Assembly: GCA_023402015.1 (NCBI GenBank)
Contig: JAEXCU010000015.1
Span: 825 to 64,824, forward strand
Direction: 5' to 3'
Source of the DNA: Pseudomonadota bacterium
Lineage (GTDB): Bacteria > Pseudomonadota > Alphaproteobacteria > Rs-D84
Length of the DNA stretch: 64,000 bases
The translations under genes and the position numbers were made by a program. Below the pieces are notes generated by a model. That model was not told the DNA's origin. It ran no database searches and worked only from the letters and a program-made list of their open reading frames with translations. Below are positions 4,214 through 55,805 of the stretch, in pieces; positions within the stretch are counted from its first letter, which is position 1; every line of letters starts with the position of its first letter.

Positions 4214-4256
4214 GCCGGGATTATACCCAAAAAAAATCAAATTAAAAGCAGAAAGT

Positions 4257-4282
4257 AAAAACCGCCCAAAATGGGCGGTTGG
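4257..4282 (-). terminator. rho-independent terminator after skp
   Basis: Minus strand reads aaccgcccattttgggcggttttt. Confidence 0.6.
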
Positions 4283-4301
4283 GAATTAATAACCGTGAAA
4301 A

Positions 4302-4976: not shown

Positions 4977-5044
4977 CCTTTTGTATGTTCTGGTCGCAGT
5001 ATAGCAATAAAAAAATGAAATGAAAAGGGAAACTTGTCGTGATA

Positions 5045-5725
5045 TTAACGCGCCGGCGCCAATCTGATTTCCACACGACGATTGGTTAGGCGACCAATGT
5101 CATCCTGGGCCGCGATTGGGCGCGCCGCACCCCGGCCAACAATAAACATCCGGGCGGTGTTAACACCATGCTGGGATAAATAAACACCAACACGCTGGGC
5201 CATGTCCAACGACAATGCATTTGATGCGTTGGTATTTGTCATTGCGTCGGTATAACCCGCAATTTCAACAAATGTTGCGTCGTATTTCTTTAATATCTTG
5301 GCAATGGTGTTCAGTGTGTCGTCGCCGGTCGCAGAAATATCGGCCACATTTAATTCCATTATTGCGTCCCGCACCAATATAATAACAACATCTGTTCCTG
5401 CGCGCTGAACAGAAATGCCGGGTTTGCGCAATGCATCATACAATGCGTATTCCAGGTTTGCCATATAGTGCACAGATAAAATATTATCATTTGTTGCTTT
5501 GTCGCCATATTCCAGTTTTGCAGGTGCATTTTCACCGGTAATTAATTTACCGCCGGCCCCCAGGTAAACAGGCCGCTTGGCCACACGGGCGGGTTCAGAC
5601 ATATCAGAAAAACTGGCGCCGGATAAATACCCAGACCATGTGTTGCGTGCAGGGCTGTGATACGGGGTGCATGCGGTTATTGTGCATGTTATAAATATTG
5701 CCAAGATTAATTTTGTTATATCCAT
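5045..5725 (-). CDS. OmpA/MotB-domain lipoprotein
   Basis: Lipobox-like ITAC. C-terminal OmpA-type peptidoglycan-binding domain (IAGYTDAM..SNALSLDMAQRVGVYL...NRRVEIRL). Confidence 0.8.
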   Translation of the reverse strand: MDITKLILAIFITCTITACTPYHSPARNTWSGYLSGASFSDMSEPARVAKRPVYLGAGGKLITGENAPAKLEYGDKATNDNILSVHYMANLEYALYDALRKPGISVQRAGTDVVIILVRDAIMELNVADISATGDDTLNTIAKILKKYDATFVEIAGYTDAMTNTNASNALSLDMAQRVGVYLSQHGVNTARMFIVGRGAARPIAAQDDIGRLTNRRVEIRLAPAR

Positions 5726-5728
5726 TAA

Positions 5729-6187
5729 TTATTTCACGATAAATGAAACCTGGTTTGTTGCAGATGAAAAACAATGTGATTCAGGCGATGTTTCATATCC
5801 ATTAACAATGATTGTTGTCGCCCATTTTGGAACCGCGGTTGTAAAATAATTACATTCGCCCTGGGTTAAATTAACCAGATTAATTGAAAAAAACGATGTA
5901 TCAGTGGTGGGACCAACCGTCCAATCTGGACCACCAATTGGTGCGGCGGATGATTTTAATGCGCCGGCCTTGATTAAATAATCCACCGACAGGCCCGTAT
6001 AATCACCACGCATTTCCATCAGTAATTTTGTATTTTTTGCAATTTCTTGTAATTGCGCAGATGCGATTTGACGTGTTTGATTGCGACGTATGACAGAATA
6101 AACACCAATTGCACTGGCCGTCATCAGACCGGCAATTGCCAAAACGCCAATTACTTCTATCATAGAACGACCGGATTCATGTTTCAT
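5729..6187 (-). CDS. type IV pilin-like protein
   Basis: Class III signal MKHESG|RSMIEVIGVLAIAGLM (Gly at -1, Glu at +5, hydrophobic helix). Two C-terminal Cys. Stop lies 3 nt before the OmpA-domain gene start. Confidence 0.65.
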   Translation of the reverse strand: MKHESGRSMIEVIGVLAIAGLMTASAIGVYSVIRRNQTRQIASAQLQEIAKNTKLLMEMRGDYTGLSVDYLIKAGALKSSAAPIGGPDWTVGPTTDTSFFSINLVNLTQGECNYFTTAVPKWATTIIVNGYETSPESHCFSSATNQVSFIVK

Positions 6188-6208
6188 TTGATTTTCCTTG
6201 GGTTATGA

Positions 6209-7753: not shown

Positions 7754-7832
7754 GCTAAATCTTCCTTTGGCCCCAGGATAGCAAAACAACACCAAATTTC
7801 AACAATTAAAGTATGAAAATCGCAGCGTTAAT

Positions 7833-8123
7833 TTATTTTAAATCTGTAATAAAATCCGGGAAAGATGCATCGTCGTCATCGGATGTGTCGGCCGGTTCAG
7901 TGATTGGTTGATTTTTTTCTTTGGGGTCGCGTGTGGAATCAATTTTTCCCTGTTCTGCACTGACGATGCGACCGTAATGTTCCGCCGCCTGCATCAGACG
8001 TTCGCGTTCAATTTCGTCCGGTGTTTGTCGCGCCTGGTCCATGTATTGTTTTCTTTTTTGGCGCCATTTATGACAACGCTGAATCATCAGCCCGACAGAC
8101 GATTGGTTTTTCTTATTTTGCAT
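7833..8123 (-). CDS. small basic/acidic protein, DUF4167-like
   Basis: Core ...YMDQARQTPDEIERERLMQAAEHYGRI resembles the alphaproteobacterial DUF4167 motif (..AR...D.vEaEn..QHAEHY.R.), recalled from memory. Confidence 0.45.
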   Translation of the reverse strand: MQNKKNQSSVGLMIQRCHKWRQKRKQYMDQARQTPDEIERERLMQAAEHYGRIVSAEQGKIDSTRDPKEKNQPITEPADTSDDDDASFPDFITDLK

Positions 8124-8266
8124 TTGTTTTCTTTTTTCAGGAAGTCATTTCAGACGGCAATAATTTTATCGCCATCGCTTGTCAACATTTGGAATAATAA
8201 ATCATCTTAAAACTGATTGCAATAATTTTTTTCAATTGCTATGCTGAACCACGTAGGAGGGCTGTC

Positions 8267-9622
8267 TTGCAAAGGCAAAGTGGAAATTTTTTATTGCAGG
8301 CTTTGTTGTCGCTGACCCTGATATTTGCCTTCGTTCCATATTTTGCAACGCGGCTGGCGGCGCGCGATATGGATTCACAAATGCATGCTGCGTCCCGACA
8401 AATTGAATCTGCACAAACTGCCGCGCGCATTTTTATTCGCGAAACCGCATCTGAATTGCCATATGATGTCAGTGTTATTTCTGGCAATGCGTTTGCCGAT
8501 ACGTTGGAACCATATGGATTGCCGTTGGGGTTTGTTCCGCGTACCGCATTGGGCCAGGATATTTCATTGGTTATAAATAAAACACCCCTGGCGGTCAGTG
8601 CGTATTTAAAACTGTCCGGTGGCGGATTATCACAACTGGAATTGGCGGAATTGGCACGCAGAATTGGTTTTTATGCCAGTGCGGATGGCGATGGTATTAT
8701 TGTTGGATTGGCGTTGGATGATGTCTATTCAGATATTGTTCGCCGCAATGAAACGAATTTGGATAACAGTGCATTTTTAACAGATTTAGATATGGGTGGT
8801 TTTGTTTTTGACAATGCCGGAAATGTAATGGCGCGTCGCGGTGAATTTGATTCGGCAGAGTTTGGAACACTGTCCGTTGTTGGAACAGAATCCGGACGAA
8901 AACAAAAAAATGACATCAAAAGTATATTAACCGACAAGGCGGTCTTTCAAACAAAAACAGGTGAATCTGCATTATCGTTAACACGTGGTGGATTGGTTGT
9001 GGAAATGGTAAATGCCAAAACGGTTTCGCGATATGGTGATACGGGCAATTTAACCGCCGGCGCGGCATCTGTGTACGATTTCGCAATGACCGCGGGGCGC
9101 ACCAGTTTTACCGGCCCGTCTAAATGGAATGTCCGGGGCAGTGTTATCACAGATAAAATAAATTTTAGCATAGAAAGATTAGAAGTGGATTCTTTTATTA
9201 ATGCCGCCCGGGGCCAGGACGTTTATATAAATCCAGATGATTTGGAATATTCCACCCGCAGCGGCATAGAAGTCAATTCCATTGCCGCGTCCAATATTAC
9301 TGTGCGCGACCAGACATCAGATGCCCTGTCCCATGGTGAAACCGGTGCTGTTATTTTGGACATTCGTCCCGCCGGCACATCTGTGATGCCAGACGTGTTG
9401 GTTAATGGCATTGATAATAATGCAATTGCAATCATTGCGGCGCCAGGGGACAATGACGGTAAAACCGTTGATTGTAAATCCATAATTAACAAATATGACG
9501 GACGCTATAATCAAAAATCTTTGGCCCAGTATATCATATGCCAATATGTTTATTGGCAACGCCTGGAAAAAAGAATAAATATAAAAAAATGTTTGCTGGA
9601 TGGTAAAAGTGGCTGCGTATAA
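8267..9622 (+). CDS. large prepilin-like protein 1 (451 aa)
   Basis: TTG start 8 nt after a strong SD (aggagg). N-terminus MQRQSG|NFLLQALLSLTLIFAFVPYF is pilin-like, with Gln instead of Glu at +5. The C-terminal half is paralogous to the next two ORFs. Confidence 0.5.
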   Translation: MQRQSGNFLLQALLSLTLIFAFVPYFATRLAARDMDSQMHAASRQIESAQTAARIFIRETASELPYDVSVISGNAFADTLEPYGLPLGFVPRTALGQDISLVINKTPLAVSAYLKLSGGGLSQLELAELARRIGFYASADGDGIIVGLALDDVYSDIVRRNETNLDNSAFLTDLDMGGFVFDNAGNVMARRGEFDSAEFGTLSVVGTESGRKQKNDIKSILTDKAVFQTKTGESALSLTRGGLVVEMVNAKTVSRYGDTGNLTAGAASVYDFAMTAGRTSFTGPSKWNVRGSVITDKINFSIERLEVDSFINAARGQDVYINPDDLEYSTRSGIEVNSIAASNITVRDQTSDALSHGETGAVILDIRPAGTSVMPDVLVNGIDNNAIAIIAAPGDNDGKTVDCKSIINKYDGRYNQKSLAQYIICQYVYWQRLEKRINIKKCLLDGKSGCV

Positions 9623-10814
9623 AACAAAAATCTTTGACGATTATTCCCGTGGCGCCAGCATGACCGAGGTTTTGCTGTCCATGGCAATTGTTGCGGTTAT
9701 TGCGCCTTTGCTGTACACGCAAATTTCAGATGCAAATCACAATATTCGTGATATGGCCGTGGCCCAGAATATTGTTAATATGCGCGGCGATGTGGCGAAT
9801 TTTGTTCGCCTGCACCAAGATAAATGGCCCGACGTTGCCCAGATAAAATTGGCCGATGATGAATTGGATGATATATCACAAATGCCGGTTGCAGGATTTA
9901 TTGATAAGTACATGGTTCGCGGCGCGACAATTACGGATGTTTACCTGGCATTTGATTTGGACCGTTCATTGATGCGTACCGCGCGCGTGGCAAATCATAT
10001 TGGTGATGATGCGGCCGTTGTTGGGGATGACGGCATTGCATACGGTCGTGATTGGGCGGTTTCTGCGCCGGATTTTAAACCCGGTAATTTAATATACAGA
10101 ATTTCGCGCGATATTTCCGGCGAAGATAAATCAAAATACCTGCATCGTGGCACGGCCAGCGAAGACAACCTGAACGTGATGCAGCGCGATTTAAATATGG
10201 GCAACCAAAATGTTTATAATGTCGGCGGCATAGCCGCAAAATCGGCCCAGATAAAAAATGGATCTGCAACATTTATTGCGACAAATAATCTGGTCGCAAA
10301 TACGGTATATTTTTCAGATGGGGCAAATCTGGACGGGGCAAATGCGGTTATTGGAAATTTACGGGTTTCGGGTGATATATCGGGATTTCGCAATATTTAT
10401 GCCGACAACATTAACGGCCGGGGATTTACCACAAATGGTCGCATTATAACCGACCGCGCATCTGTTTCCAATTCTGTCAATGTTGCCAATGATATGATAT
10501 TAAAATCCGATACCGTGCGCACGGTCAGTGGTTTTACCGGAATATCTGTTAATTCTGTTAACACATCATATTTATCCAGCGAAGAAATCATATTTTATGA
10601 TAATTTTGGACTGACTGTATCGGGCGAATTGCTGATGTCAACGACGGCGCCGTTGAAAATTGGTTCATGGACATTTCCAACAACAAACCCGCCACGGTTT
10701 AATGAAATATTCTTTACACGCGCATCCATACCTGAACCGCCGGTCAAGGGTGAATTTGGTCCGTTATTAATCAGTGGATGGCAATCCATAATGCCCCAGG
10801 ATATTATAAAATGA
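9600..10814 (+). CDS. large prepilin-like protein 2 (404 aa)
   Basis: ...SRG|ASMTEVLLSMAIVAVIAPLLY (Gly -1, Glu +5). Overlaps the upstream ORF by 23 nt. C-terminal region is rich in short V/I-x-G/N/S beta-strand-like repeats. Confidence 0.55.
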   Translation: MVKVAAYKTKIFDDYSRGASMTEVLLSMAIVAVIAPLLYTQISDANHNIRDMAVAQNIVNMRGDVANFVRLHQDKWPDVAQIKLADDELDDISQMPVAGFIDKYMVRGATITDVYLAFDLDRSLMRTARVANHIGDDAAVVGDDGIAYGRDWAVSAPDFKPGNLIYRISRDISGEDKSKYLHRGTASEDNLNVMQRDLNMGNQNVYNVGGIAAKSAQIKNGSATFIATNNLVANTVYFSDGANLDGANAVIGNLRVSGDISGFRNIYADNINGRGFTTNGRIITDRASVSNSVNVANDMILKSDTVRTVSGFTGISVNSVNTSYLSSEEIIFYDNFGLTVSGELLMSTTAPLKIGSWTFPTTNPPRFNEIFFTRASIPEPPVKGEFGPLLISGWQSIMPQDIIK

Positions 10815-12136
10815 TGAAACATACGCGTATTTTTAACCAGTGTTGTGGCGAATCCGCACAGCGGGGCGGGATGCTGGTGGAATTATTGTTGTCGGTTGCG
10901 CTGGTTGCGATTATTTTGCCATTTATATTTGGATATCAGCAACGTGCCATAACCCGCGCAGAAAGTATTGCCATTACACATCAAATGGAAAATATTCAAT
11001 CTGCGTTGGAAAAATATATCATCGCCAACCGCCAGGAATTATTGACCACCGTTGGCAAAAACATTACCCGTGTCGCATTGGCAGATTTAGGCGAATATGG
11101 GATTAATCCTGATATTGTCGCGAATGCGGCGGATAAATATCAATTGCGCATTTTAAAATCAAATGATAATCGGGGACACGCCACTTTGCAGGGCGTAATT
11201 GTTATGACAGATCCCGATATTACCCCATTGCGCACACGTGAAATTGTTGGCCTGGGCGGGACGCAAATGGGATTTATTGAGGGCAACCGTGCATACGGTA
11301 CATTTGGGGCATGGCGCGCAGATACGGTTGATTTGGGTCTGAACGTTCGTAATGGAATCATAGAAACAACAAATGTTAATCGCGACAATGCGTTGTACCT
11401 GTGGCGTATTCCATCCACGGATGCAACGGATGCGACAATGATGTCTGCATTAAATTTGGGAAATCATGATATTCGCGGGGCGGCATTCTTTAATGCGGCC
11501 GGGGCCCAATTTGATGAAACATTAACTTTATCAGAAACTGTTGCACGTGATGTAATTTTTCAAAACAGAACCACAATCAGCAATAAATTTACGGCCGCCA
11601 ATGCATCTATTGCGGGAATATTATCATCTGATTCCCGTAATATGGAAGTTGCCGGTTCGTTTAATTTAAACGACACCGGAAAATTTACCAGTTTTACCGT
11701 GGACGATTTATGGGTTGGCAATTTGACATTGGCCGGGTTATCCATATACGATGACGGCGCTGCATCTGTGTTAAAGATTAATCGCGCGTTGGACATGACA
11801 TCAGGCCGAATTGACGCAATGTTTATCACGGTCAGTTTTGCCGGTTCCATAACACCACGCCTGGTTGTGCGCAACAGAATAGAAGATTCAATCAATCCCG
11901 ATTATTTTTGGGATGCGGATATTGGTATTGCACATTTTATGGATATGACGTTAATGGAATTGAATCATATGGCACCATTGGCGGTGCGTGGTGAACGTGG
12001 CGGTGATACCGTCGCGGCCCAGGATTTTGGCGCCGTTGCGGCAAATAAAAATGCCACTGTTTCCGATTACATGAACGCAATAACAGAAATTCAGAACAAA
12101 GTCCGCGCCAAATATCGCCAGTTGAATTTAGATTAA
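10811..12136 (+). CDS. large prepilin-like protein 3 (441 aa)
   Basis: ATGA start/stop overlap with the upstream gene. ...QRG|GMLVELLLSVALVAIILPFIFGY (Gly -1, Glu +5). C-terminal repeats are paralogous to proteins 1 and 2. Confidence 0.55.
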   Translation: MMKHTRIFNQCCGESAQRGGMLVELLLSVALVAIILPFIFGYQQRAITRAESIAITHQMENIQSALEKYIIANRQELLTTVGKNITRVALADLGEYGINPDIVANAADKYQLRILKSNDNRGHATLQGVIVMTDPDITPLRTREIVGLGGTQMGFIEGNRAYGTFGAWRADTVDLGLNVRNGIIETTNVNRDNALYLWRIPSTDATDATMMSALNLGNHDIRGAAFFNAAGAQFDETLTLSETVARDVIFQNRTTISNKFTAANASIAGILSSDSRNMEVAGSFNLNDTGKFTSFTVDDLWVGNLTLAGLSIYDDGAASVLKINRALDMTSGRIDAMFITVSFAGSITPRLVVRNRIEDSINPDYFWDADIGIAHFMDMTLMELNHMAPLAVRGERGGDTVAAQDFGAVAANKNATVSDYMNAITEIQNKVRAKYRQLNLD

Positions 12137-12156
12137 TTTATGGTATAAACGTTATT

Positions 12157-12666
12157 ATGAAAATAGTATGTGATTTTTGCAAAACAGAATATTCATGCGA
12201 TGCCGTGCCGACAATGCCGGTCAAATGTGCCGTGTGTGGAAATACATGGACGGTTCAGCGCCCCCCGCGCAAGAATGCGTTTTTGGTATTTATTGCGGCG
12301 ACGTGCGCATTGTTGGCGGCGATTGTATTTACCGTTGTTATAATTACCCGGCACCAGGTTGAAAATGTTGCAAATAATCCATTGGTACCCGCTGTTACGT
12401 CTGTGTCCACAGTTGTGGATGCGTCGGGCGTTGCGCACTTTGTGGTGAATGGTTATGTTCAAAACCGGTCTGATGAAATATACGGTGTGCCGGATTTAAT
12501 AATTATTTCATGGGATGGCGATGGAAATATTGTCGCACAACAAAAATTTATGCCGTCGGCAACATTGCTGGATGCGGGCGGGGCGACATCTTTTACGCAT
12601 ACTTTATCGTCGCCCACGGCGGGGGTAAAAAAGATAACTGCAAAATTGCAAAACGGGGGTAATTAA
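12157..12666 (+). CDS. MJ0042-type zinc-ribbon membrane protein (DUF3426-like C-terminus)
   Basis: CDFC...CAVC zinc ribbon at the N-terminus, one TM helix (FLVFIAATCALLAAIVFTVVII), then a small beta-rich domain. Confidence 0.6.
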   Translation: MKIVCDFCKTEYSCDAVPTMPVKCAVCGNTWTVQRPPRKNAFLVFIAATCALLAAIVFTVVIITRHQVENVANNPLVPAVTSVSTVVDASGVAHFVVNGYVQNRSDEIYGVPDLIIISWDGDGNIVAQQKFMPSATLLDAGGATSFTHTLSSPTAGVKKITAKLQNGGN

Positions 12667-13185
12667 ATGAAACGAATTTTAATGATTTTATTAATGATGA
12701 TTACCGTGCCGGCGTTTTCCGCAGACAGCACCACCACGCCGCCCCCCCATACAATCCCGGCACCAAATCCAAAACCAGGTGATAAGCCAGCGCCCACGCC
12801 AAAACGTATCAGTATTTTTTCCACCAGTACAGATTGGGAGGGTTTAACCGGTCTGCAATTGGCACAATACAGTGGTGAATTTATCCATGATTCCAAATTA
12901 ATCGGCAAAGGATTGGTTTTGTATTATCTGGACGGATTTCCATGCTATGGCCTGGGGTACGGGGTGCGTGTATGGCTGGGGCCTGGGAAAAAGCATGATG
13001 GTGATTTGCATATTGCATGTCTGTATCCACCAACTGAATTAAAATTTACATGGCGAAATGCCCTGCGTGATGCGGACGAAGCGGTCAGCACGGGCATTTT
13101 AACTTGTCCGGTCAGTGGCGACCGACATCTGATTATTGATTTGTCCAAATGCACCAAGGGCAAAGATTGGTCAGAATACAAATAG
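12667..13185 (+). CDS. secreted protein with Pro-rich linker
   Basis: Signal peptide MKRILMILLMMITVPAFSA, then TTTPPPHTIPAPNPKPGDKPAPTPK. The ATG directly abuts the upstream stop (taaATG). Confidence 0.5.
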   Translation: MKRILMILLMMITVPAFSADSTTTPPPHTIPAPNPKPGDKPAPTPKRISIFSTSTDWEGLTGLQLAQYSGEFIHDSKLIGKGLVLYYLDGFPCYGLGYGVRVWLGPGKKHDGDLHIACLYPPTELKFTWRNALRDADEAVSTGILTCPVSGDRHLIIDLSKCTKGKDWSEYK

Positions 13186-13196
13186 GTTTATAATTT

Positions 13197-14156
13197 ATGT
13201 CTGAAAATCGTGAATTTGTTATTGCACCAGAATCCGCCGGCATGCGTTTGGATAAATATCTGGCCGAAAAAATGCCGGAATTTTCACGCAGTGAAATTCA
13301 GCGTTTCGCCGTTTCGCAAAATGGTGCGCCGGTAAAATTTTCCCGTCCCCTGCGTGCGGGCGAAATTTATAATGTTGAAATTCCCGATGCACCGACCGAT
13401 GTTGCATCGGAAAATATATCTGCGGATTTTCATTTAGATATCATATACGAAGATGACGATATTATCGTTATAAATAAACCGCGTGGCGTTGTTATGTACC
13501 CGTCGGCGGGGAATAAAACCGGAACATTGGTTCAAAATGTTTTGGCGCATACGCATTTATCTGCGCTGGGTGGGGCCACGCGGCCCGGCGTGGTGCATCG
13601 TCTGGACAAAGATACCAGTGGCGTTATGGTATTTGCCAAATCAGACCCGGCATATCGGGGTTTGGTGAAAACATTTTCTGCGCATGATTTAACACGCAAA
13701 TATGTCGCATTTGTATGGGGTGTTCCCAATTGGGAAAGTGCGGATATCACCGGCAATATTGCACGGTCTTCGCGTAATCGTCAAAAAATGACAATGGTTA
13801 AAACGGGGGGCAAATCCGCCCAGACCGAGGTTTCGGTCATGAACGTATGGACGCGCGTCGGGGTTTGCCAATTGCGGTGCAATTTATTAACCGGACGCAC
13901 GCATCAAATTCGCGTTCACCTGTCCGCCCATGGATTTCCTGTGCTGTGCGACCCGGTTTATGGGCGCGGGACAAATCGTCTGGGGGCGGTCCGGAACCCA
14001 GATTTATTGGAATTTCTAAAAACGCACAACGGTCAAATGCTGCATGCCGAATATCTGGAATTTGCCCACCCAATTACGGGGGAAATGATGCAGTTTAAAA
14101 CCCATTTGCCCGACGATATGCTGGAATTGAAATGCATTTTGAACGAAACGTTGTAA
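13197..14156 (+). CDS. rluD: 23S rRNA pseudouridine synthase, RluA/RluD family
   Basis: N-terminal S4-like domain (RLDKYLAE...SRSEIQR) and catalytic motif HRLDKDTSGVMVFAK. Confidence 0.85.
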   Translation: MSENREFVIAPESAGMRLDKYLAEKMPEFSRSEIQRFAVSQNGAPVKFSRPLRAGEIYNVEIPDAPTDVASENISADFHLDIIYEDDDIIVINKPRGVVMYPSAGNKTGTLVQNVLAHTHLSALGGATRPGVVHRLDKDTSGVMVFAKSDPAYRGLVKTFSAHDLTRKYVAFVWGVPNWESADITGNIARSSRNRQKMTMVKTGGKSAQTEVSVMNVWTRVGVCQLRCNLLTGRTHQIRVHLSAHGFPVLCDPVYGRGTNRLGAVRNPDLLEFLKTHNGQMLHAEYLEFAHPITGEMMQFKTHLPDDMLELKCILNETL

Positions 14157-14270
14157 ATATAAAAATACCCCGGTAAAAACCGGGGTAAAAAGAATTCTTT
14201 TTCGCATATTTTTCCTTTATTCAACCCTGATTTTATGTTATACTGAAATAATAAATAATGGAGTCAGGGA

Positions 14271-17200
14271 ATGAGTCTGCTGAAAAAAACATTTGGTTTT
14301 ATTGCGATTATGGGCGTTTTGCCGGCGGCATCGGCGTTAACATCGCGTCTGGGATATGTCGGAAATGCGTCCACGCGTATGCCGACAATGACGACATATA
14401 TCACAAACCCAACGGCAACGGTCGCAACGACATCTGCATTACTGGCAAACGCAGAATGCATTGATGCGTATACTTCCTGTATGAAAGGCGCAGATGTCTG
14501 TGGTCCAGATTTTGAAGAATGCACGACCAAGGTTTTGTTTCATGGCAAAATGCCACAATGTATCAGCACACTGGCCCAATGTAATACGGCCGGTATAACC
14601 TCGCTGTTTGGGATTGGAACGACAACGTCTTTGGGCGCGGTTGCAACCAAGAATTCATATGGTGAAATCACAGATTACACATACCCAACCGACGGCAGTG
14701 TTTTGGGACAAATGATTTCCGGCGCGGCGATTTCCAATAGATTAGATACATCCAGTTGTATTAAAAAATATACATCATGCCTGAAAAGAAGCACCAACTG
14801 TGGCAATGATTTTGAATTATGCACCACGAACCAGGAATTCAAACGACAAATGGTTAACTGTGCATCTACGTTGGCATTGTGCGACAGCGAAGGCAAAATA
14901 GAACTGTTTGGTTCGGTTAATACAACAACCACCCCTGCGGCATCCAGCCGTATCGGTGAAATGATCAGCGAAGGCGCAGCCTTGGCGGCGATTAATTCTG
15001 TTTCTACATGCTACAAGGTTGTTGACCAATGCATCCTGACGGCCTGTGCGGAAAATCCGTATAAATGTATGGAAAATTCATCCCAGGCAACGGTTGATTT
15101 GGCACAAACAATCGCCAGTGGTACAGAAGGCACCGGCACAGAAATCATTACTGATACAATCACAAATTCTGCAATTGCAGGATATATCAGAAATTCTTGC
15201 CGTGATGTAATTGGTGCAAACAAATATTGTTATGCAACATTTGTCGGCAATGGCGCAATGCCAACCGCCGCCCAGTTGCGCGACGAAGACAACCAGGACG
15301 AAGTCTTTGACGAAGCGTATGGCGCCCGCATGAATTCTGCGATGAAGGCGAAAATCAGTGAATTGGTTGATAAATTTGATACCAAAGCCAAAGAAAAATG
15401 CACGGAAACAATCCGGGAATGCGCAATGCGCGTTTGCGGTGGTGGTTCCGGTGCGGCGTGTTATTCCCAGGTGTATGGCAACAAAGATAAATCAATTAAT
15501 AATTCCGTCAGTTGGAATGAAATTAAAACCGGCTGCGCGGCAATTGTTAATACAGATGCCAACTGTAAATATGCGGCGGCAAATCCGAATGCATCTGGCC
15601 CGTATTCTTATGCATATATAAATAATGATGCGTTTGACACATTGTTCCCAGAATACGAAGAAGGTGGCATGGACCCAATTGGTGTTGTTGCGGCATTAAA
15701 TGCAAATTTGGCAAATTCGTACAGCGATGCAGCAATCGCCCAAATGAAACGCCAGTGCCAGGCCGTTGCGACATCATGCGTAAAATCCATGTGCGGAAAC
15801 GATTACATGAATTGCTATCGCAACCGTACGGATATATATTCCAATCTGACCGATACGGGAAATATGTCATTTGACAAATCTATGAACAAGGTCGGTGGTG
15901 TTCTGGATTACACAATTGTTTTGGGGCTGTGTTTGGATACGGTAAAAAATGCGGCCGTATGTGAAGAACACCTGGCAATTGAACAAAATAAACTGAAATT
16001 GGCAAATGCGGCGTCCAGTGCGTCATCATGGGGTGATGCGGGCAGTGTTCGTACCGGTTGGATTGACGCCGGCAAGGCAACAACGGTGGCCGCGGAAACA
16101 GAACAGGTTGCGGCGGTTGATGAAAATGGCAACCAACTGTGCAGTGCCAAAGACGGCAGCCAAGGCGTATGCTATTCCGTGGATGCCAACGGTAATATTT
16201 ATGACCAACCTGTATATATTTCTTATACGACATATATCCAGTCCCAGGCGGCCAGTTCGCTGTTCAAAGACCTGATTTATGATTTGGAAAAAGAAGCCCA
16301 GGCCAAGTACAACGCCAAATTGACCAAAGAACAAAATATGTGTATGTCGGCCAACAGTGGTGGTGTAATGGGGAAAAAAGACATGGGCAGCACATATATG
16401 TGGGCGAAACTGAAATCGCAAAAGGTTCCGGCAAACTATTCCGTAAATGGTTTGAAACCGAACCAATTTGTGGCCAGCAATGATTTGTATGGTTCATTCT
16501 GCCGCATCCGCATAACGTTGCAATCTGATGATAAACGGATTCAAGAAGCAATCCGCAACGGCAGTGATTGGTCCACGGCATACTTCGCGGTCGGTGATAC
16601 ATTCACCTGTGGCAGTTGGATACCGTCCAGTGCATTGGAAGAAATTGCCAACGCTGTTGCAGACAAAGCAACCGAAGGACAAGAGGCCAGCCAGAAACGT
16701 ACACGTACATGGTTAACAACATTGGGTGCGTTGGGTGGTACCGTTGGTGGTGCATATCTGGGCAGTGGCATTCAGAACGGAACGGTCTTTGGTGGACTGA
16801 CCGGATTGGGCGACGGCGGCAAAAAGAACAATAATGCAAAAAGCGCCGTTCAAAACTGCATTGATTATGCCGAACAGGCACCAAAAGAATCAGATTTTGA
16901 ACAGATGCGTACTTATGCCAATGCTGCAATAGAACGCGCCAAAGCCGCAGGGGTTAGCGTATCGTCTTCGGTTAATGATGCGGTTAATAACCTGTCCAAG
17001 GTTTCTGCGGGTGATAATGATAACACAGAATATGACATTGGTGGTGTCAAAAAGAAAAAGTCTGACTTAGTATCTGCCGCCAAAACTGCAATGGGCACTT
17101 TAAAAACGGCGTGCGAACTGAAAAAAGATGACAGTGGGCAAACCAAAAAAGGAAAAAATAATGCCTGGGTTGGTTCAACCATTGGGGCGGTTACAACCGG

Positions 17201-17381
17201 ATTGGCGGGTGGATTCTTGGTTAACAAAATTACCAAGGATATCCAGGATTCCAATCTGGACAGCGCGCAAAAGGCCGCGTACGAAGAATGGATGAACAAT
17301 GTTGGTAAACATATTCAGTGTTATATCGGTGGGGACGAGGCCGGTGAATATGGCGACATAATCACAACCAGCATTGAATAA
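14271..17381 (+). CDS. 1036-aa secreted Cys-rich protein with C-terminal glycine-zipper segments
   Basis: Signal peptide. Tandem 6-Cys module C-x6-C-x6-C-x6-C-x12-C-x6-C occurs twice, followed by three C-x6-C-x4-C-x6/7-C units. Gly-rich hydrophobic segments WLTTLGALGGTVGGAYLGSGI and WVGSTIGAVTTGLAGGFLV lie near the C-terminus. Confidence 0.7.
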   Translation: MSLLKKTFGFIAIMGVLPAASALTSRLGYVGNASTRMPTMTTYITNPTATVATTSALLANAECIDAYTSCMKGADVCGPDFEECTTKVLFHGKMPQCISTLAQCNTAGITSLFGIGTTTSLGAVATKNSYGEITDYTYPTDGSVLGQMISGAAISNRLDTSSCIKKYTSCLKRSTNCGNDFELCTTNQEFKRQMVNCASTLALCDSEGKIELFGSVNTTTTPAASSRIGEMISEGAALAAINSVSTCYKVVDQCILTACAENPYKCMENSSQATVDLAQTIASGTEGTGTEIITDTITNSAIAGYIRNSCRDVIGANKYCYATFVGNGAMPTAAQLRDEDNQDEVFDEAYGARMNSAMKAKISELVDKFDTKAKEKCTETIRECAMRVCGGGSGAACYSQVYGNKDKSINNSVSWNEIKTGCAAIVNTDANCKYAAANPNASGPYSYAYINNDAFDTLFPEYEEGGMDPIGVVAALNANLANSYSDAAIAQMKRQCQAVATSCVKSMCGNDYMNCYRNRTDIYSNLTDTGNMSFDKSMNKVGGVLDYTIVLGLCLDTVKNAAVCEEHLAIEQNKLKLANAASSASSWGDAGSVRTGWIDAGKATTVAAETEQVAAVDENGNQLCSAKDGSQGVCYSVDANGNIYDQPVYISYTTYIQSQAASSLFKDLIYDLEKEAQAKYNAKLTKEQNMCMSANSGGVMGKKDMGSTYMWAKLKSQKVPANYSVNGLKPNQFVASNDLYGSFCRIRITLQSDDKRIQEAIRNGSDWSTAYFAVGDTFTCGSWIPSSALEEIANAVADKATEGQEASQKRTRTWLTTLGALGGTVGGAYLGSGIQNGTVFGGLTGLGDGGKKNNNAKSAVQNCIDYAEQAPKESDFEQMRTYANAAIERAKAAGVSVSSSVNDAVNNLSKVSAGDNDNTEYDIGGVKKKKSDLVSAAKTAMGTLKTACELKKDDSGQTKKGKNNAWVGSTIGAVTTGLAGGFLVNKITKDIQDSNLDSAQKAAYEEWMNNVGKHIQCYIGGDEAGEYGDIITTSIE

Positions 17382-17485: not shown

Positions 17486-19279
17486 TTAACGTGTGCGTAT
17501 TTTATTATTTAAAAAATCTATTTTTGCGCGAATTCGGGCATGATGTGGAATATTGTCCACCAATCGCGCAGAAATAAATTCTGTGGCGGCGGCAATTTGT
17601 GGGGCGGTGTATTTTCGTAAAACAATACTTAAATCATCCCAGCCCTGATAAATTACCGTGTTAACAATTTTCGTCATATATGAATGTGACCAGTGTTGAT
17701 AATTTATTCGTATTGCCCCACAATCTGTCAGTGTGTTTCCATTGCAATTACCGCCACTTTCAAAATCAAACATTTGATATCGTTTAAAACAACCATACGG
17801 GTCGCGTGGTGTCGCAGATTGGGTTCCGTCTGAATATGGATAAATCAGATATTTTTCACCACGCTGGTGGCTGATACCGGCGGTGGCCATTTTACGAAAA
17901 TGTATTTTACCGTGGTATTTTTTTCCACCCACCAAGAACGAATTTTGCAATTCTGTGTCATGTGCCCATGATTTTAAATAACCTGTGCCGCGGTCGCAGT
18001 GATAAATTTTCCATACGTAATCCGGCGCGCCGGGGACGATGATACGATATGCCTTGGTAAAATTCCCGGAACCCAAATACCCAATTTTTACCGGTTGCTT
18101 TATCAATTTTTGGATGTTTGTCGCCAATGTTTTTAACTCGCCCTGGAACATTTCCGCAATTTCATTGCGATTGTCGGGCGAATACATCCGCGTCGTGGCA
18201 TTGCGAAAATATTCGTGCAGTTTTTTTGTTATTGCACCGCGTTGTGATTTTGGTACGGTGCGCAGCCAGTCATACGGAAATGCACCGGGATTTTTATAGT
18301 TCGCCGCAACAATTGCATACATATAATCGTTGTTAATCGGTTTATGTTTCAGCAATTTTGTACACGACCCAAATTCATTCGCCGTCGCATTTGTTATTGG
18401 CATAACAATCCGGGCCAGTTCGCCCAGGGACAATTGGGTTAATTCCCATGGTGTGGTGCAGATATTATATTTCTTTAAATATGCCTTTATTCCCGAAACA
18501 AACATTGGAATTTGTTCGCAATATTGTGCCATTTGGCGCCGCACGGCGGGCGATATTGTCTTGGCCCCAGATAATGAACATTGCGCCGCATCAGATAAAA
18601 CTTGTTCTATGTCCGATTGTGATATTGTGGATGTTCCGCGAATATTTTGTATCCACAATTCGCGCCGAAAATTAAACAGTAATGCGCCCCGACGGGCACT
18701 GTCCATTGCGGTTTGCGGGGTGGATTCCACATATGTGTGGTTGTGGAATTGAATGCCCGTATAATTGCGACCACAAATGCCGTTTTCGTTAAACTTTAAT
18801 GATACCAGGTTTAATATTTTAATCCCTGCAATACTTCGGCGCCCCAGTTCATGATAATGTTTTCCGCGATATTGACTTACCGGATAAATTTGCGGCATGC
18901 CGTCCGCACCACACCGAATAATTGTGGTCAGATTTGGTCCGACACCCGGCATAAATGGCAAAATCTGATGCCAAGCAGACGGTATTTGCAATGTACGTAT
19001 ATTTGGGCACATGGAAAATGCAGAATTTTTTATGGTGGTCAGCCCACGCCCCAGGCACAGTGTGTCTAGGTCCGGGTTATTACAAAATATATCGCCATTG
19101 ATTTTATTCATAGAATCTGGCAAATACACCGCGCGCAATCCCGGCAATGCATTCCCCACGCCGTCTGCAATGTGTTTTATGCCGTCGGGAATGCGCAAAG
19201 TACCACGCGCATCTAAATCTGTTTCATTTACGGATAAAAGTGTGTCGCCGTTAATAATCATACCTGTATAATTGCACAA
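17486..19279 (-). CDS. BspA-type leucine-rich-repeat protein with C-terminal kinase-like region
   Basis: N-terminus LRIPDGIKHIADGVGNALPGLRAVYLPDSMNKINGDIFCNNPDLDTLCLGRGLTTIKNSAFSMCPNIRTLQIP fits LRR_5/BspA periodicity. The C-terminus has LGSGNFTKAY (G-loop-like), VWKIY (Lys), FDFESGGNCNGN and TDCG (catalytic/DFG-like). Confidence 0.55.
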   Translation of the reverse strand: MCNYTGMIINGDTLLSVNETDLDARGTLRIPDGIKHIADGVGNALPGLRAVYLPDSMNKINGDIFCNNPDLDTLCLGRGLTTIKNSAFSMCPNIRTLQIPSAWHQILPFMPGVGPNLTTIIRCGADGMPQIYPVSQYRGKHYHELGRRSIAGIKILNLVSLKFNENGICGRNYTGIQFHNHTYVESTPQTAMDSARRGALLFNFRRELWIQNIRGTSTISQSDIEQVLSDAAQCSLSGAKTISPAVRRQMAQYCEQIPMFVSGIKAYLKKYNICTTPWELTQLSLGELARIVMPITNATANEFGSCTKLLKHKPINNDYMYAIVAANYKNPGAFPYDWLRTVPKSQRGAITKKLHEYFRNATTRMYSPDNRNEIAEMFQGELKTLATNIQKLIKQPVKIGYLGSGNFTKAYRIIVPGAPDYVWKIYHCDRGTGYLKSWAHDTELQNSFLVGGKKYHGKIHFRKMATAGISHQRGEKYLIYPYSDGTQSATPRDPYGCFKRYQMFDFESGGNCNGNTLTDCGAIRINYQHWSHSYMTKIVNTVIYQGWDDLSIVLRKYTAPQIAAATEFISARLVDNIPHHARIRAKIDFLNNKIRTR

Positions 19280-23427: not shown

Positions 23428-24084
23428 TTATGGTTTTATCAATTCGCCACCTTCGATAATTTCACCACCACCGATTCCGCCACCCAGGATACTGTATTTG
23501 CAATCGTCTGTTAATTGGTATGTGCCCGTGTCATCAGAATATTCGCATGTCTTGCCCAACATGTCAGGTTTGGCGACCTGATAACAATCTGTTATGCCGT
23601 TCGCACCATAATTTAAACTGGCCGAACCGCAATTTTTAAATTCAAATGTATCCGGGTCATAAACCCCGCTGTCGGTTTTTGTATTCCCGGGACATGCCAC
23701 GCATCCATAACCATCGTGATACCAACCACTGCGGCATTTTATTTTTTCACATTCGCATGTTTCTTCATTCAGTGTATTTCCCGCCATACACATCATGGCG
23801 CCGCAGCCAATGCATTCGCATGTGTCCGGATCTTGGTCGCCCATGCATATGTTGGGGCATACGCATTCCCCATTCTGATATACTTTTGGGTCTGCGCATT
23901 CAAATCCTACGCAATAACTGGAATCATAAACGCATCCGTTCGGCAGGCATCCGCCCGCAGGTGCCGGATTTGCACAACGATAACAATCCAAACATTCTGG
24001 GTAAATCATCTGGGCGGCATATGAATTTGTGCCCCATGCCATTGCAATTACCGCGGAATATAAACCGACGTTTGTATTAGGCAT
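23428..24084 (-). CDS. small secreted Cys-rich protein (furin/VSP-like C-x2-G-[YW]..C-x2-C repeats)
   Basis: Signal peptide, about 30 Cys in 218 aa, CRSGWYHDGYGCVACPGNT module, C-terminal DDTGTYQLTDDCKY motif shared with 33486, 35413 and 35743. Confidence 0.65.
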   Translation of the reverse strand: MPNTNVGLYSAVIAMAWGTNSYAAQMIYPECLDCYRCANPAPAGGCLPNGCVYDSSYCVGFECADPKVYQNGECVCPNICMGDQDPDTCECIGCGAMMCMAGNTLNEETCECEKIKCRSGWYHDGYGCVACPGNTKTDSGVYDPDTFEFKNCGSASLNYGANGITDCYQVAKPDMLGKTCEYSDDTGTYQLTDDCKYSILGGGIGGGEIIEGGELIKP

Positions 24085-27147: not shown

Positions 27148-28651
<1,504 letters not shown>

Positions 28652-28786
28652 TAGAGAATACCGTTTACACGAAAACGGTCAAATCCAAACGCGACTGTCT
28701 GAATATCTCTTTTTGAAATGGCGAATAATTCTGGTATCAGCGGAACTATTGAATAAAAGATATTTTCGTAAAATCAGAAATAATCT

Positions 28787-28863
28787 GGGTCAGTAGTTCA
28801 GTTGGTTAGAATGCCGCTCTGATACAGCGGAGGTCGAAGATTCGAGTTCTTCCTGACCCACCA
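28787..28863 (+). tRNA. tRNA-Ile (anticodon GAT), CCA encoded
   Basis: Cloverleaf: acceptor gggtcag/ctgaccc, anticodon stem ccgct/agcgg with loop ctGATac, T-arm gaaga-ttcgagt-tcttc. Confidence 0.9.
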
Positions 28864-29118
28864 CTTAATTTGATGAGGTTGGAATCAGAAACAAGTGATT
28901 GTTTTTGATTCCAGATGTTCCAGTAATATCTTCGGAATCTGCTTTTATAGCAATACATTGTGAATCGGTTTATATGTCGCAAATTAAAATTTATAGAAAT
29001 ATAAAACTTTGATTTGTTGAACATCGTATAATAATCTCAAAAATCTTTCTAAAATTTAAGAGTAATCACGAAAGTGATAATTCAATTAGAAAACAAGAAT
29101 CAACTGAAAATGCTTAAA

Positions 29119-29148
29119 AGACGTTTAACAAACGTCTGCTCATTTAAG
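29119..29148 (+). promoter_or_regulatory. boxB-like hairpin plus boxA-like element in the 16S-23S spacer
   Basis: Hairpin agacgtt-taaca-aacgtct followed by tgctcatttaag (compare E. coli boxA tgctctttaaca). Confidence 0.3.
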
Positions 29149-29195
29149 TTCTTTTATTAAGTGCCAGAAGACATTCTCTTCAAGCATAAGATAAA

Positions 29196-31935
<2,740 letters not shown>

Positions 31936-32039
31936 TTTATCTTATCGTTTGACTTTATGTCAGACGAATGCTTGAAGAGAACGTTGACAATTGATTCTTA
32001 TTGATTATAATGATGTTCGCTGGATTTATTCTGGTGATT

Positions 32040-32143
32040 ATTGAGCGGGAGCCACCCTCTGTTCCATCCCGAACCAGACAGGGAAACCCCGTATCGCCGA
32101 TGGTACTTTGGCTTAAGCCACGGAAGAGTAGGTCGTCGCCAGA
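32040..32143 (+). rRNA. rrf: 5S ribosomal RNA
   Basis: tctggtg...ccgaac...cgccgatggtactt...agagtaggtcgtcgccaga. The terminal stem is extended by ggatttatt/aataaatcc. Confidence 0.9.
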
Positions 32144-32178
32144 ATAAATCCAGTTTACGACATATAAACCGAATTTAA

Positions 32179-33485: not shown

Positions 33486-34181
33486 TTGCCGAATCTAATC
33501 GGTCATTTGGGCATGGCAGGGATTATTGTTGGCTTTATGGGGCTGATTTTTACAACCCGTGCATTTGGGGCCAGTTGCATAAGTTGTACCAATTCAATCA
33601 CCGGTGCATGCACCACAACAGGCCCAAACTGTTGCGCCCCATGCACCAGTGGTGGCACCATAACCCCAACATCATGCCCAGATGATTGTCCCAGCACATC
33701 GTTTTTTTCCCAAGTTTCCGGCACGAATTATGAGGCCAAGTGTGTTGATAGTACATTTAGTGGTAAAATCTGCAAATACCAATGCATAGATGGATATTTC
33801 AATTATAATGGCGGTGTTGGTAATTTAAATGGCACCCCAACGTGTTATAAATGCCCGACCGCAAATGTTCAATCATGTACCCGAACAAAACTTACCTGTA
33901 AAAGTGGATATTTTCATTTTACCCGCAGTCATAACTGCGTTGCATGCGTTGAAAATGCAACGTGCACGGATGGCGAAAATTTTAATTGCAAAATCGGGTA
34001 TTACCAATCCAACACACTGGCCTGCGCGCAATGCCCGTATGATTCCGAAACAAAACAATATGGTACCACCAGTGCCCCAGGCGCAACATCAGAAAATCAA
34101 TGCTATGTACCGGCTGATATTTCTGTTTCTGACACAACAGGTGTTTGGACGTATATTGAAAATTGCCAATATACAGGGTAA
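33486..34181 (+). CDS. small secreted Cys-rich protein (furin/VSP-like repeats)
   Basis: Signal-like GIIVGFMGLIFTTRAFGA. Modules CIDGYFNY..CYKCP, CKSGYFHF..CVAC and CKIGYYQS..CAQCP. C-terminal SDTTGVWTYIENCQY motif. Confidence 0.65.
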   Translation: MPNLIGHLGMAGIIVGFMGLIFTTRAFGASCISCTNSITGACTTTGPNCCAPCTSGGTITPTSCPDDCPSTSFFSQVSGTNYEAKCVDSTFSGKICKYQCIDGYFNYNGGVGNLNGTPTCYKCPTANVQSCTRTKLTCKSGYFHFTRSHNCVACVENATCTDGENFNCKIGYYQSNTLACAQCPYDSETKQYGTTSAPGATSENQCYVPADISVSDTTGVWTYIENCQYTG

Positions 34182-41381: not shown

Positions 41382-41569
41382 GGTGCCATTATATCTTAAA
41401 TCCATGTAATCGGCAAACAGTAAAAAGTCTTTTCTGGGCGCCCTGGTTTTCTTATTTACACAGGTTTTCAAAAATGTTATAATTAGACAAAGTATATATG
41501 CCAATGGCATGCATGCGCGCTGTAAAACAGCGGGTTTTCCGGCCCACCCCGGATACAGGAGAGTATTTT

Positions 41570-43681
41570 ATGAAAAGCCGTAATTTCGCAGATTTTTGCA
41601 AAAATGCAATGGGTACAGTGTTTTTATTGGCCGGTGCATTTTTCGTTTGTTCTACGTTGGTATCAATGCGGGCGGTTTTCGCAGACCCAATCGCACCTGC
41701 GGCAATAACCGCGCAATCGGGACGCGCCGGCGCCACCGGGCGCAGTAATGCGACCCCGCGCAATGCAACAAACACGGTATCCCGCGCAACCGGCACCACA
41801 ACCGCGGCGACCCCGTCGCGCAGTGTTGCGTCGCGCGCCAATGCCGCAAATTCTTCGCGCGTAACAACGGCAAATTCATCCCGCGCAACAACGGCGGCCA
41901 CCACAACAAATAATGCATCACGTGGTGTTGCATCGCGCAACGTTGTTTCCCGCACGGGTACCACAAATGCATCGCGCAGTACGGGTGCAACAACCGCACG
42001 CAGTGTTCGCGCCCGCGCTGCCAATCCGTCCCGCGTTTCTTTGCAGGGCAGTGCAATCCGTGGGTCCAAGGCATCAACAAATACATACACGTATTTGTCA
42101 AACAAACTGTACACTGGCAATTATTCAAATATCATTGATTCATCCACTGGTTTGATTTCGGCCGATGCATACAACAATTGTATGGAATCATATTATGCAT
42201 GCATGGACGAAATCTGCACCGCACGTAATGCGGCCCAGCGTCGTTGCGCATGCGCCGGTCGTGTCAAAGCCTTTGCCGAGGCGGAAAGCCAACTGGAAAC
42301 GGCCAACGAAGAATTGATTAAGGTTTCTGGTGAATTGGCATTGCTGATTGCAACCAAGGGCAAAGATGTCAGCGAGGCATTTAAATTAACCGATGCAGAA
42401 AAGGTTATGAACTGCGTTTCCTGGCAAGAGGCCAGCAAGAAAGGCACCATTTCATCTGATGATTTCGGCGATTGGTGCGCACAACACGCGATTTATGACG
42501 GCACATGCAGTAATACAACCCCGCCGTCTTATTGTAAAGAAAATGGCAATTCATTCGGATTTGATGTCAGTGCCCTGGACGGCAGTGGCAGTGATATCTT
42601 GGCATCATTACAATCATGGGCCAATGCCAAGGAAAAAACCCTGACCATCATTTCTGATGATGAAAACAGCCTGACCAGTGCGTTTGACAATCTGTCCCAG
42701 GTGGTCAGTGGCCTGGCCGGAATTAATGGCGCGTTTTCCAACAGTGAAAATCTGAAAGATTCATTGGCAGAAACATGGGGATATGAATTGTTTGAATATG
42801 CCCACAACAATGTTTGCAACCGCGTTTTGGATTCCTGCTTTAACGGTATTTACGAGGCATGCGGTGCCCCACCGTCATCGGGTCGCAAATGCGGCAATGG
42901 TCAATCACAATGCCCGTACAATTATAACAGTGTTATCAGTGTTTCAAACACCGGTACATATGAATTGAACTTTGTTGAACCGAATACCGGTTATACTGCA
43001 TCCAATTCGGCAACATGCTTTGGTTATACATCTGCATCGGGCGACCCGTATTCAAACCTGCGTGGTCCGGTGGCCGATGCCCGCCGCAGCATTTTGCAGA
43101 AATATGCGCTGGATGCGAATGCGGACTGCGACGCATATGGCGACCAATTGCGTACAACCGCCCAGAATATCGGATATCAAAAGGTTGCCGCGCAACAGGC
43201 ACTGCAACAGAAACGTCTGGAATTTGCCCAGGATGAAAAACAATCTGTGCTGACCGATGCGATTACGGCGGGCACCAACTTTAACGAATGTATGAGCGAG
43301 ATTTTAGACTGTTATGAAACCCAGGCGAATTCACATGGCCCCGGTTCCAGCAGTGTGTGGTCTGATTCACGTATCAAAACATATTGTGCCCAGGTTGCAA
43401 ATGTTCCGCATTGCTATGAAACAATGATTTGCAATCCGTCATCTGCCCAGTTCAAGGCGGTTATTGACAAGGCCGACAGTGCACAATGCCTGAACAGCCA
43501 GGATTACACCAAGAACACATGCCGCAATATCGTTACATTGAACGAAATCTTGAATGGTACGGGCGCGGCAAAGCCGGGCAACATACCGTCTGAATCCAAT
43601 GGTGATTCTGCGGGTATGCGTGAACAATGCCTGTTGGATTCATTTGTTGATGAAATCCGTTCATGGAGTGCAAATAAATAA
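41570..43681 (+). CDS. 704-aa secreted Cys-rich protein with S/T/R-rich N-terminal tract
   Basis: RBS aggagag, start MKSRNF. About 150 aa of (S/T/N/A)n-SR repeats. NCMESYYACMDEICTARNAAQRRCAC is the same C-x6-C-x4-C-x9-C-x-C module as in 45394..47619. Confidence 0.7.
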   Translation: MKSRNFADFCKNAMGTVFLLAGAFFVCSTLVSMRAVFADPIAPAAITAQSGRAGATGRSNATPRNATNTVSRATGTTTAATPSRSVASRANAANSSRVTTANSSRATTAATTTNNASRGVASRNVVSRTGTTNASRSTGATTARSVRARAANPSRVSLQGSAIRGSKASTNTYTYLSNKLYTGNYSNIIDSSTGLISADAYNNCMESYYACMDEICTARNAAQRRCACAGRVKAFAEAESQLETANEELIKVSGELALLIATKGKDVSEAFKLTDAEKVMNCVSWQEASKKGTISSDDFGDWCAQHAIYDGTCSNTTPPSYCKENGNSFGFDVSALDGSGSDILASLQSWANAKEKTLTIISDDENSLTSAFDNLSQVVSGLAGINGAFSNSENLKDSLAETWGYELFEYAHNNVCNRVLDSCFNGIYEACGAPPSSGRKCGNGQSQCPYNYNSVISVSNTGTYELNFVEPNTGYTASNSATCFGYTSASGDPYSNLRGPVADARRSILQKYALDANADCDAYGDQLRTTAQNIGYQKVAAQQALQQKRLEFAQDEKQSVLTDAITAGTNFNECMSEILDCYETQANSHGPGSSSVWSDSRIKTYCAQVANVPHCYETMICNPSSAQFKAVIDKADSAQCLNSQDYTKNTCRNIVTLNEILNGTGAAKPGNIPSESNGDSAGMREQCLLDSFVDEIRSWSANK

Positions 43682-55742: not shown

Positions 55743-55766
55743 CTGTTGTTAATTTATCTTTTCAAT

Positions 55767-55796
55767 TATATCACATTTAGGGCAAAATGTGATATA
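55767..55796. promoter_or_regulatory. perfect 12-bp inverted repeat (TATATCACATTT-N6-AAATGTGATATA) in the divergent promoter region
   Basis: Read directly: 55767..55778 is the exact reverse complement of 55785..55796. It lies between divergent VirB6-like genes (55742 and 55806). Confidence 0.5.
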
Positions 55797-55805
55797 GTTA
55801 AAACA

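Follow-up and report, generated by a model that had tools for sequence, protein, structure and literature searches.

The whole 64-kb stretch of DNA analysed here (the window, from contig JAEXCU010000015.1) belongs to Candidatus Enterousia, order Rs-D84, Alphaproteobacteria. It carries an operon of five genes, A to E, in which the first three (the trio) encode large proteins with prepilin-type N-termini, followed by genes for a zinc-ribbon membrane protein (D) and a predicted secreted protein (E). A small prepilin of 152 aa is encoded 2 kb upstream on the minus strand next to an OmpA-domain lipoprotein; this pair was overlooked in the original prediction, an earlier reading of the same DNA. All coordinates are listed in Table 1. 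Candidatus Enterousia is a widespread, uncultured gut lineage with genomes of 0.75-1.0 Mb that lack respiration and standard transporters and have incomplete glycolysis, and a dependence on partner organisms is suspected (PMC12306168).

Operon structure and conservation

The genes of the operon are tightly coupled. A and B overlap by 23 nt, or by 14 nt if B begins at GTG 9609 as in P0121. B and C share an ATGA overlap, a 20-nt gap separates C from D, D and E meet at TAAATG, and E is followed after 11 nt by the gene encoding the rluD-type pseudouridine synthase, in agreement with the junctions given in the original prediction. A, B and C are co-translated from overlapping genes. The rluD gene is probably on the same transcript, but it is a housekeeping gene outside the system. 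The only strong hairpin lies at 14166-14187, 3' of rluD, and promoter and terminator scans of the locus gave signals at background level. The genes skp, ompA, the small pilin gene and dnaX are on one strand and A-B-C-D-E-rluD on the other; the neighbours of the operon are housekeeping genes (dnaX, rluD and skp-lpxD-fabZ).

To compare the locus among relatives, 92 loci from about 85 related genomes, each spanning ±10 kb, were used. The five-gene order A-B-C-D-E was kept in 84 of the 92 loci, 77 of which also had the small pilin arranged as in the window. The small pilin was located upstream of the trio in 78 loci, and E directly followed D in 86. The GC content of the locus (0.44) was close to that of its surroundings (0.45), which together with the kept gene order indicates that the locus is chromosomal and vertically inherited, not mobile. 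An origin from a mobile element was rejected in view of this synteny and composition.

In a scan of GTDB with one genome per species, 201 stretches encoded a relative of protein C. The 80 loci retained from it are named as Candidatus Enterousia or as "uncultured Alphaproteobacteria" or "uncultured Rickettsiales" metagenome-assembled genomes (MAGs), from animal and human guts. A profile search with the C family, exhaustive over 1.84 billion representatives, found only 341 clusters (at 50% identity), with proteins of about 400 to 1236 aa that have only the first ~250 positions in common. The trio was also present in four distant lineages, L009 (469, 446 and 482 aa), L090, L091 and L007; in the last of these, a metagenome contig, the trio at 3551-14143 consists of much larger relatives of 1236, 1083 and 1188 aa. 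In addition, single relatives of ~1080 aa were observed in other gut alphaproteobacterial MAGs (L095, 10001-13255; L096, 10001-13222), divergent beside fliL-fliM, and there the preceding gene encodes a protein of 225-235 aa that begins directly with a hydrophobic helix.

Prepilin-type N-termini and relationship to PilV

A, B and C each contain one hydrophobic segment, which is N-terminal and has Gly just before it. The leader of A comprises 6 residues (MQRQSG↓NFLLQ, where the arrow marks the predicted cleavage site) with Gln at +5. The leader of B comprises 15-18 residues (...KxKIFxDxxRG↓ASMTE, with ...YSRG↓ASMTE in the window) and that of C reads ...RIF......QRG↓GMLVE, both with Glu at +5. 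These residues, read directly from the open reading frames (ORFs), are those originally reported. Among the 46 window ORFs, which comprise nearly all coding space of the window and were also used for the Pfam scans, a search for "G-x4-[EQ]-hydrophobic helix" matched only A, B, C and the small pilin.

The same pattern was observed across about 85 species, with G↓(N/S)F(L/M)xQ in A (motif in 74 of 84 orthologues, Gln always at +5), G↓(A/S/T)Sx(L/T/M)E in B, G↓(S/G/N)ML(V/I)E in C and G↓(R/A)S(L/M)(I/V)E in the small pilin. Gly-1 and Glu+5 were found in every full-length distant relative of C inspected, such as QKG↓SMMVEALAMLGL and RGAAG↓FTLLEV, and the motif was retained in relatives with less than 25% identity and up to 1236 aa. 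Gln5 recurs in the distant trios of L009 and L091, again in the product of the first gene. A charged residue held at one position of a membrane helix over deep divergence is a hallmark of type IV pilins, and the conservation of Gly-1 and Glu/Gln+5 at such depth bears out the earlier reading of a prepilin-type (class III) signal. Among profile models, Pfam N_methyl (PF07963) scored B below its gathering threshold (E 0.087; 12.9 bits vs a cutoff of 21.2) and did not match A or C; it was sub-threshold in 12 of 23 B orthologues, with 0.002 as the best E value among orthologues. NCBIfam added only GspK (E 0.08) and GspH (E 0.13).

The C profile recovered, at E 1e-9 to 1e-12, several proteins that are bona fide members of Shufflon_N (PF04917; E 1e-21 to 1e-69). 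Shufflon_N is the constant N-terminal region of PilV. A phmmer search with P0344, a bona fide PilV among these proteins that is clustered in locus L092 with a T2SSF fragment (pilR), a PilS pilin and a T2SSE ATPase, matched C at E 4e-11; the Shufflon_N model itself gave no match to A, B or C at E ≤ 1. In hhalign comparisons, the C family matched the PilV set with a probability of 99.5% (E 4e-23, 238 columns), the B family with 97.4% (E 1e-11, 230 columns) and the A family with 88% (E 3e-6, 190 columns), and A matched C with 93.5% (E 2e-7). Since the N-terminal helix is common to all pilins, the comparisons were repeated without alpha1, and the values were 98.7% (E 2e-16) for C and PilV, 94.5% (E 8e-8) for B and PilV, 8% for A and PilV, 1% for A and C, and 66% for A and B.

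Because the match survives the removal of alpha1, C and B are, as judged from their sequences, homologous to PilV (Shufflon_N superfamily). Much more diverged than these two, A is probably the third paralogue of PilV type, as suggested by collinearity, equal size, the shared (L/I)(D/N)(L/M)GG motif and its position in the operon; the statistics for A are not strong. A also contains four invariant C-terminal Cys (403, 425, 442 and 450). In IncI plasmids, the type IVb thin pilus has PilS as its major pilin and PilV as its minor pilin and adhesin (PMC9045228). The trio belongs to the PilV superfamily as a strongly diverged branch and makes up a derived, type IVb-like set, not a new class. The original prediction had proposed either a minor-pilin tip complex or a distinct type IV filament-like surface structure. 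With clear homology to a characterised minor pilin found, the former idea was right in kind, since C and B are PilV homologues, and the latter loses ground.

It had also been stated that the C-terminal halves of the three proteins are mutually similar and suggest a beta-helix or beta-solenoid. In BLASTP and hhalign, the similarity among A, B and C was located in the N-terminal ~240 residues, and the motifs cited at the time (LDMGGFVFDNAGNV and its counterparts) correspond to the PilV motif "LYR..P..N.M..(I/L)DMG.N.I.N", at the end of the common N-terminal domain (A ~173-186, B ~195-208 and C ~225-238). The trimmed C-terminal halves gave no mutual match in hhalign (probability <3%), and the idea of paralogous beta-solenoids in this part was rejected on this result.

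For C, the confidence of the AlphaFold2 model (predicted local distance difference test, pLDDT) was 46.5 with 56 close orthologues and 80.5 with a 76-sequence alignment that included representatives at ≤50% identity. The model contains an N-terminal helix of 55 residues (18-72), the length of a pilin alpha1, an alpha/beta domain up to ~190 (pLDDT >90), a beta-rich region of regularly spaced strands (226-329, pLDDT only 55-70) and a helical C-terminal part (382-437, pLDDT 80-93). The modelled alpha1 and alpha/beta domain are as expected of a pilin, and the strands at 226-329 are of too low confidence for a beta-solenoid.

Accessory genes and neighbouring features

The small pilin has an invariant pair of cysteines (C112/C139), the usual C-terminal Cys pair. 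Of 21 orthologues, 17 had a sub-threshold match to the Pfam PilS model (PF08805; best 2e-4) and 11 to N_methyl. A few of its 852 relatives are publicly named as pilins of type II secretion systems (T2SS) or Tfp ("type II secretion system protein", "Tfp pilus assembly protein PilE"). The hhalign comparison with PilS of L092 was weak (probability 16%), so the designation PilS-like stays tentative. The small pilin is a candidate for the major filament subunit. The adjoining OmpA lipoprotein has the same gene order in relatives L001-L006, and its link to the system is positional only. Its best NCBIfam matches, all below cutoff, were YiaD/Pal-like and TssL/MotB-like peptidoglycan anchors; it may be the anchor of an envelope machine or may belong to the skp-lpxD-fabZ envelope cluster.

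Protein D consists of a cytoplasmic CxxC-x15-CxxC zinc ribbon of the PF13717/PF13719 type, one transmembrane segment (38-68) and a periplasmic DUF3426-like domain, with C5, C8, C24, C27, G28 and W31 invariant. For D of the window alone, Zn_ribbon_4 scored E 0.011 and DUF3426 (PF11906) gave no match. At the family level, Zn_ribbon_4 was found in 28 of 28 orthologues (best 4.5e-8) and DUF3426 in 20 of 28 (best 2.3e-5), in accordance with the earlier description as an MJ0042-type zinc-ribbon/DUF3426-like membrane protein. By its sequence features, D has the architecture of ZitP. In Caulobacter, the periplasmic DUF3426 domain of ZitP is needed for biogenesis of the polar Cpa pilus, and the zinc ribbon binds PopZ (PMC5182063, PMC5182065). 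PDB entry 2nb9 matches D at E 0.02, and in its sequence the CxxC-x19-CxxC spacing and W35 agree with what has been published for ZitP. D and ZitP have in common the N-terminal CxxC...CxxC, the Trp after the second pair, one transmembrane segment, the periplasmic DUF3426 and an alphaproteobacterial host; they differ in length (169 vs 311 aa) and in spacing (x15 vs x19), and the pilus served by ZitP, whose gene does not lie with pilin genes, is of the Tad/Cpa (type IVc) kind. Protein E has a signal peptide, a Pro-rich linker within a poorly conserved N-terminal part and then a conserved four-Cys domain without family, which agrees with its original description as a Pro-rich secreted protein.

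Table 1. Coordinates of the operon, of the small pilin and of other features in the window
Feature	Coordinates	Strand	Remarks
Protein A	8267..9622	+	ORF of 451 aa; TTG start; AGGAGG 7 nt upstream
Protein B	9600..10814	+	ORF of 404 aa; 401 aa if the start is GTG 9609
Protein C	10811..12136	+	441 aa; ORF of 452 aa from 10778, start at 10811 set by homologues
Protein D	12157..12666	+	ORF of 169 aa; zinc ribbon, transmembrane segment, DUF3426-like
Protein E	12667..13185	+	ORF of 172 aa; signal peptide, Pro-rich linker, 4-Cys domain
rluD-type pseudouridine synthase	13197..14156	+	Pfam PseudoU_synth_2 9e-28
Small prepilin	5729..6187	-	152 aa; MKHESG↓RSMIE; 2 kb upstream of the trio
OmpA-domain lipoprotein	5045..5725	-	Pfam OmpA 5.6e-14; 3-nt gap, downstream of the small pilin
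Basic protein	7833..8123	-	96 aa
Cys-rich protein	14271..17381		1036 aa
BspA-type leucine-rich-repeat protein	17486..19279	-	
Secreted Cys-rich pair	23428..24084; 33486..34181	- (first)	~220-230 aa
rRNA operon	27149..32144		16S, tRNA-Ile(GAT), 23S, 5S
Secreted pair	41498..43681; 45394..47619		727 and 741 aa
Five adjacent paralogues	50511..57095	4 -, 1 +	~400-480 aa

Several other genes in the window were recorded. The divergent promoter region that separates dnaX from the trio contains a gene for a highly conserved basic protein, which matched DUF4167 below threshold (E 6e-4). The Cys-rich protein has a C-terminal hydrophobic region and directly follows rluD also in relatives (1033-1167 aa); it and the BspA-type protein encoded next to it are candidate surface proteins. 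Two pairs of secreted paralogues, one of them Cys-rich, have no family. The five adjacent paralogues have hydrophobic N-termini, are apparently membrane proteins with weak mutual similarity (E 1e-4 to 3e-13) and no Pfam family, and form a tandem array in a genome of less than 1 Mb. The rRNA operon is complete, with tRNA-Ile as the sole spacer tRNA and no tRNA-Ala.

Possible function of the locus

On balance, we lean towards a reading in which the trio is a set of PilV-like minor pilins, chromosomally encoded, triplicated and without a shufflon, that together make up the heteromeric tip of a type IV filament. The assembly machinery, the cleavage, the joining of the three proteins, their place at the tip and their adhesive role are all inferred, as follows. 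The genome of ~0.9 Mb would encode, at another site, a prepilin peptidase that cleaves A, B and C after the conserved Gly. The three proteins, made in near-equal amounts from the overlapping genes, would associate through a bundle of their alpha1 helices, and the resulting heteromer would both prime the filament and cap it. Most systems have exactly one minor pilin without Glu5; this pilin is proposed to start the filament, since a first subunit has no preceding N-terminus to neutralise (PMC5207764). Because A alone lacks Glu5, it may be the first (outermost) subunit. The small PilS-like pilin would polymerise beneath the complex and build the filament, and the dissimilar C-terminal halves would form an exposed, probably adhesive head. 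Like ZitP in the case of the Caulobacter Cpa pilus, D may contribute to the positioning or assembly of the apparatus in the envelope, and E may be a secreted or periplasmic accessory protein.

The nearest known counterpart is PilV (PF04917), as encoded by the IncI1/I2 plasmids R64, R721 and TP114 and as PilV2 of PAPI-1. The trio and PilV share a prepilin signal, a size of ~430-475 aa, a homologous N-terminal constant region of ~240 residues including LYR...N.M...(D/N)MGG, the N-terminal pilin module followed by a different C-terminal module, and a small PilS-like pilin alongside. They differ in that three tandem paralogues are present here instead of one gene, the C-termini are conserved and not switched (no shufflon/rci), the context is housekeeping genes without an adjacent pilL-pilU machinery (in contrast to the bona fide locus L092), A has Gln5, and the Pfam model gives E > 1 on the window proteins.

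CofB, TcpB and LngB of the type IVb pili of enterotoxigenic Escherichia coli and Vibrio cholerae are likewise described as large, with a pilin domain and a C-terminal beta-rich region, and initiate assembly at the tip; CofB is a homotrimer, of which an A-B-C heterotrimer would be a three-gene analogue (PMC9045228, PMC5207764). In these systems, however, there is a single gene, located inside the pilus operon, and Glu5 is retained; neither sequence nor Foldseek comparison linked CofB (4QS4) or TcpB to the trio. The GspI-GspJ-GspK tip complex is also a minor-pilin set with exactly one member lacking Glu5, proposed as the first subunit (PMC5207764), whereas it has no detectable homology to the trio, GspK is encoded last and A first, and all three proteins are large here.

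Several results weigh against a functional filament tip. Scanned against Pfam and NCBIfam, A, B, C and E gave nothing significant, with Shufflon_N and N_methyl sub-threshold on the trio. Foldseek comparison of the C model with PDB and BFVD gave no match at E ≤ 0.001, apart from weak resemblances to left-handed beta-helix, bactofilin and tail-fibre structures, which were not relied upon, and sequence/profile searches of PDB gave only matches to geopilin alpha1 (E 0.01) and none to a solved pilin, CofB or TcpB, so the fold of the PilV-type head is unrepresented among solved structures. The globular part of A could barely be aligned by hhalign to C or PilV. Conservation is equally high in the C-terminal halves (0.6-0.7 identity) and in the N-terminal domain, unlike in variable adhesin tips, which argues for a conserved ligand or a structural role and against shufflon-type variable receptor-matching. 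With regard to machinery, Pfam reported no T2SSE, T2SSF, secretin or Peptidase_A24 in the 46 window ORFs, in line with the originally noted lack of pilus machinery within 64 kb; phmmer with the T2SSE ATPase and the T2SSF fragment found no homologue among all ORFs of the 92 loci; no machinery was present beside six distant relatives (L007, L009, L090, L091, L095 and L096); and a genome survey names type IV pili for another lineage and not for Rs-D84 (PMC12306168).

The lack of machinery and of reported pili, the evenly conserved C-terminal halves and the housekeeping neighbourhood would all fit an exaptation, in which the pilus machine was lost, the N-terminal helices of A, B and C stay uncleaved and hold these proteins in the inner membrane, their role is in the periplasm or envelope (e.g., a scaffold with D and E), and PilV ancestry is only historical. 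This is unlikely in our estimation: near-invariance of Gly-1 and Glu+5 over very deep divergence is hard to explain for a plain anchor, a charged Glu in a membrane helix is normally selected against unless it serves pilin docking, and a separate small pilin with a D-region-like Cys pair has been retained. The small pilin with A, B and C could instead form the pseudopilus of a T2SS-like piston, a short periplasmic filament that expels substrates such as Cys-rich secreted proteins, many of which are encoded in the window. In favour of this, NCBI names one small-pilin orthologue "type II secretion system protein", Glu5 is missing from one large member, as it is from GspK, and TCP-type type IVb systems also secrete (PMC5207764). 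Nevertheless, the homology is to PilV of type IVb pili and not to GspH, GspI, GspJ or GspK, for which only the marginal NCBIfam values given above were obtained, and no Gsp genes occur nearby, whereas T2SS genes normally share one operon; a pseudopilus is accordingly held to be rather improbable. Conjugative plasmids and islands are the best-known sources of PilV and PilS, and the locus could in principle be the remnant of an integrated conjugative element with an IncI/PAPI-1-type mating pilus. This has been largely refuted and is very improbable, as the position between dnaX and rluD is the same in ~84 of 92 loci (201 stretches in the GTDB scan), the GC content is 0.44 vs 0.45 around, the trio runs straight into D with no shufflon, and Pfam scans of the window ORFs turned up no recombinase, relaxase or type IV secretion system family.

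Beyond the PilV-like tip that we favour, the trio, the small pilin, D and E could together constitute a lineage-specific adhesive organelle, in which a minimal type IV filament bears a PilV-like heterotrimer as its head, a ZitP-like protein sets its position and a very reduced or non-canonical (possibly Tad-type) machine assembles it. These gut bacteria, with sub-megabase genomes and a suspected dependence on partners, would use it to attach to their host or to partner cells, a parallel to the type IV pili found in episymbiotic Patescibacteria. We regard this wider proposal as doubtful, if conceivable. The proteins of the trio are all annotated as hypothetical, and the operon is retained in a genome of less than 1 Mb. 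A previously family-less set of proteins (341 clusters, up to 1236 aa) is now linked to the PilV superfamily, and in the trio nature offers the trimeric type IVb tip in a three-gene form, useful as a test case for the rule that the pilin without Glu5 comes first. The interest of the locus would rise sharply if the machinery proved absent or non-canonical, or if the structure mediates attachment to a partner. With ~5 kb of a sub-megabase genome given to three PilV-like pilins and a ZitP-like protein, the locus is a candidate attachment apparatus of Enterousia.

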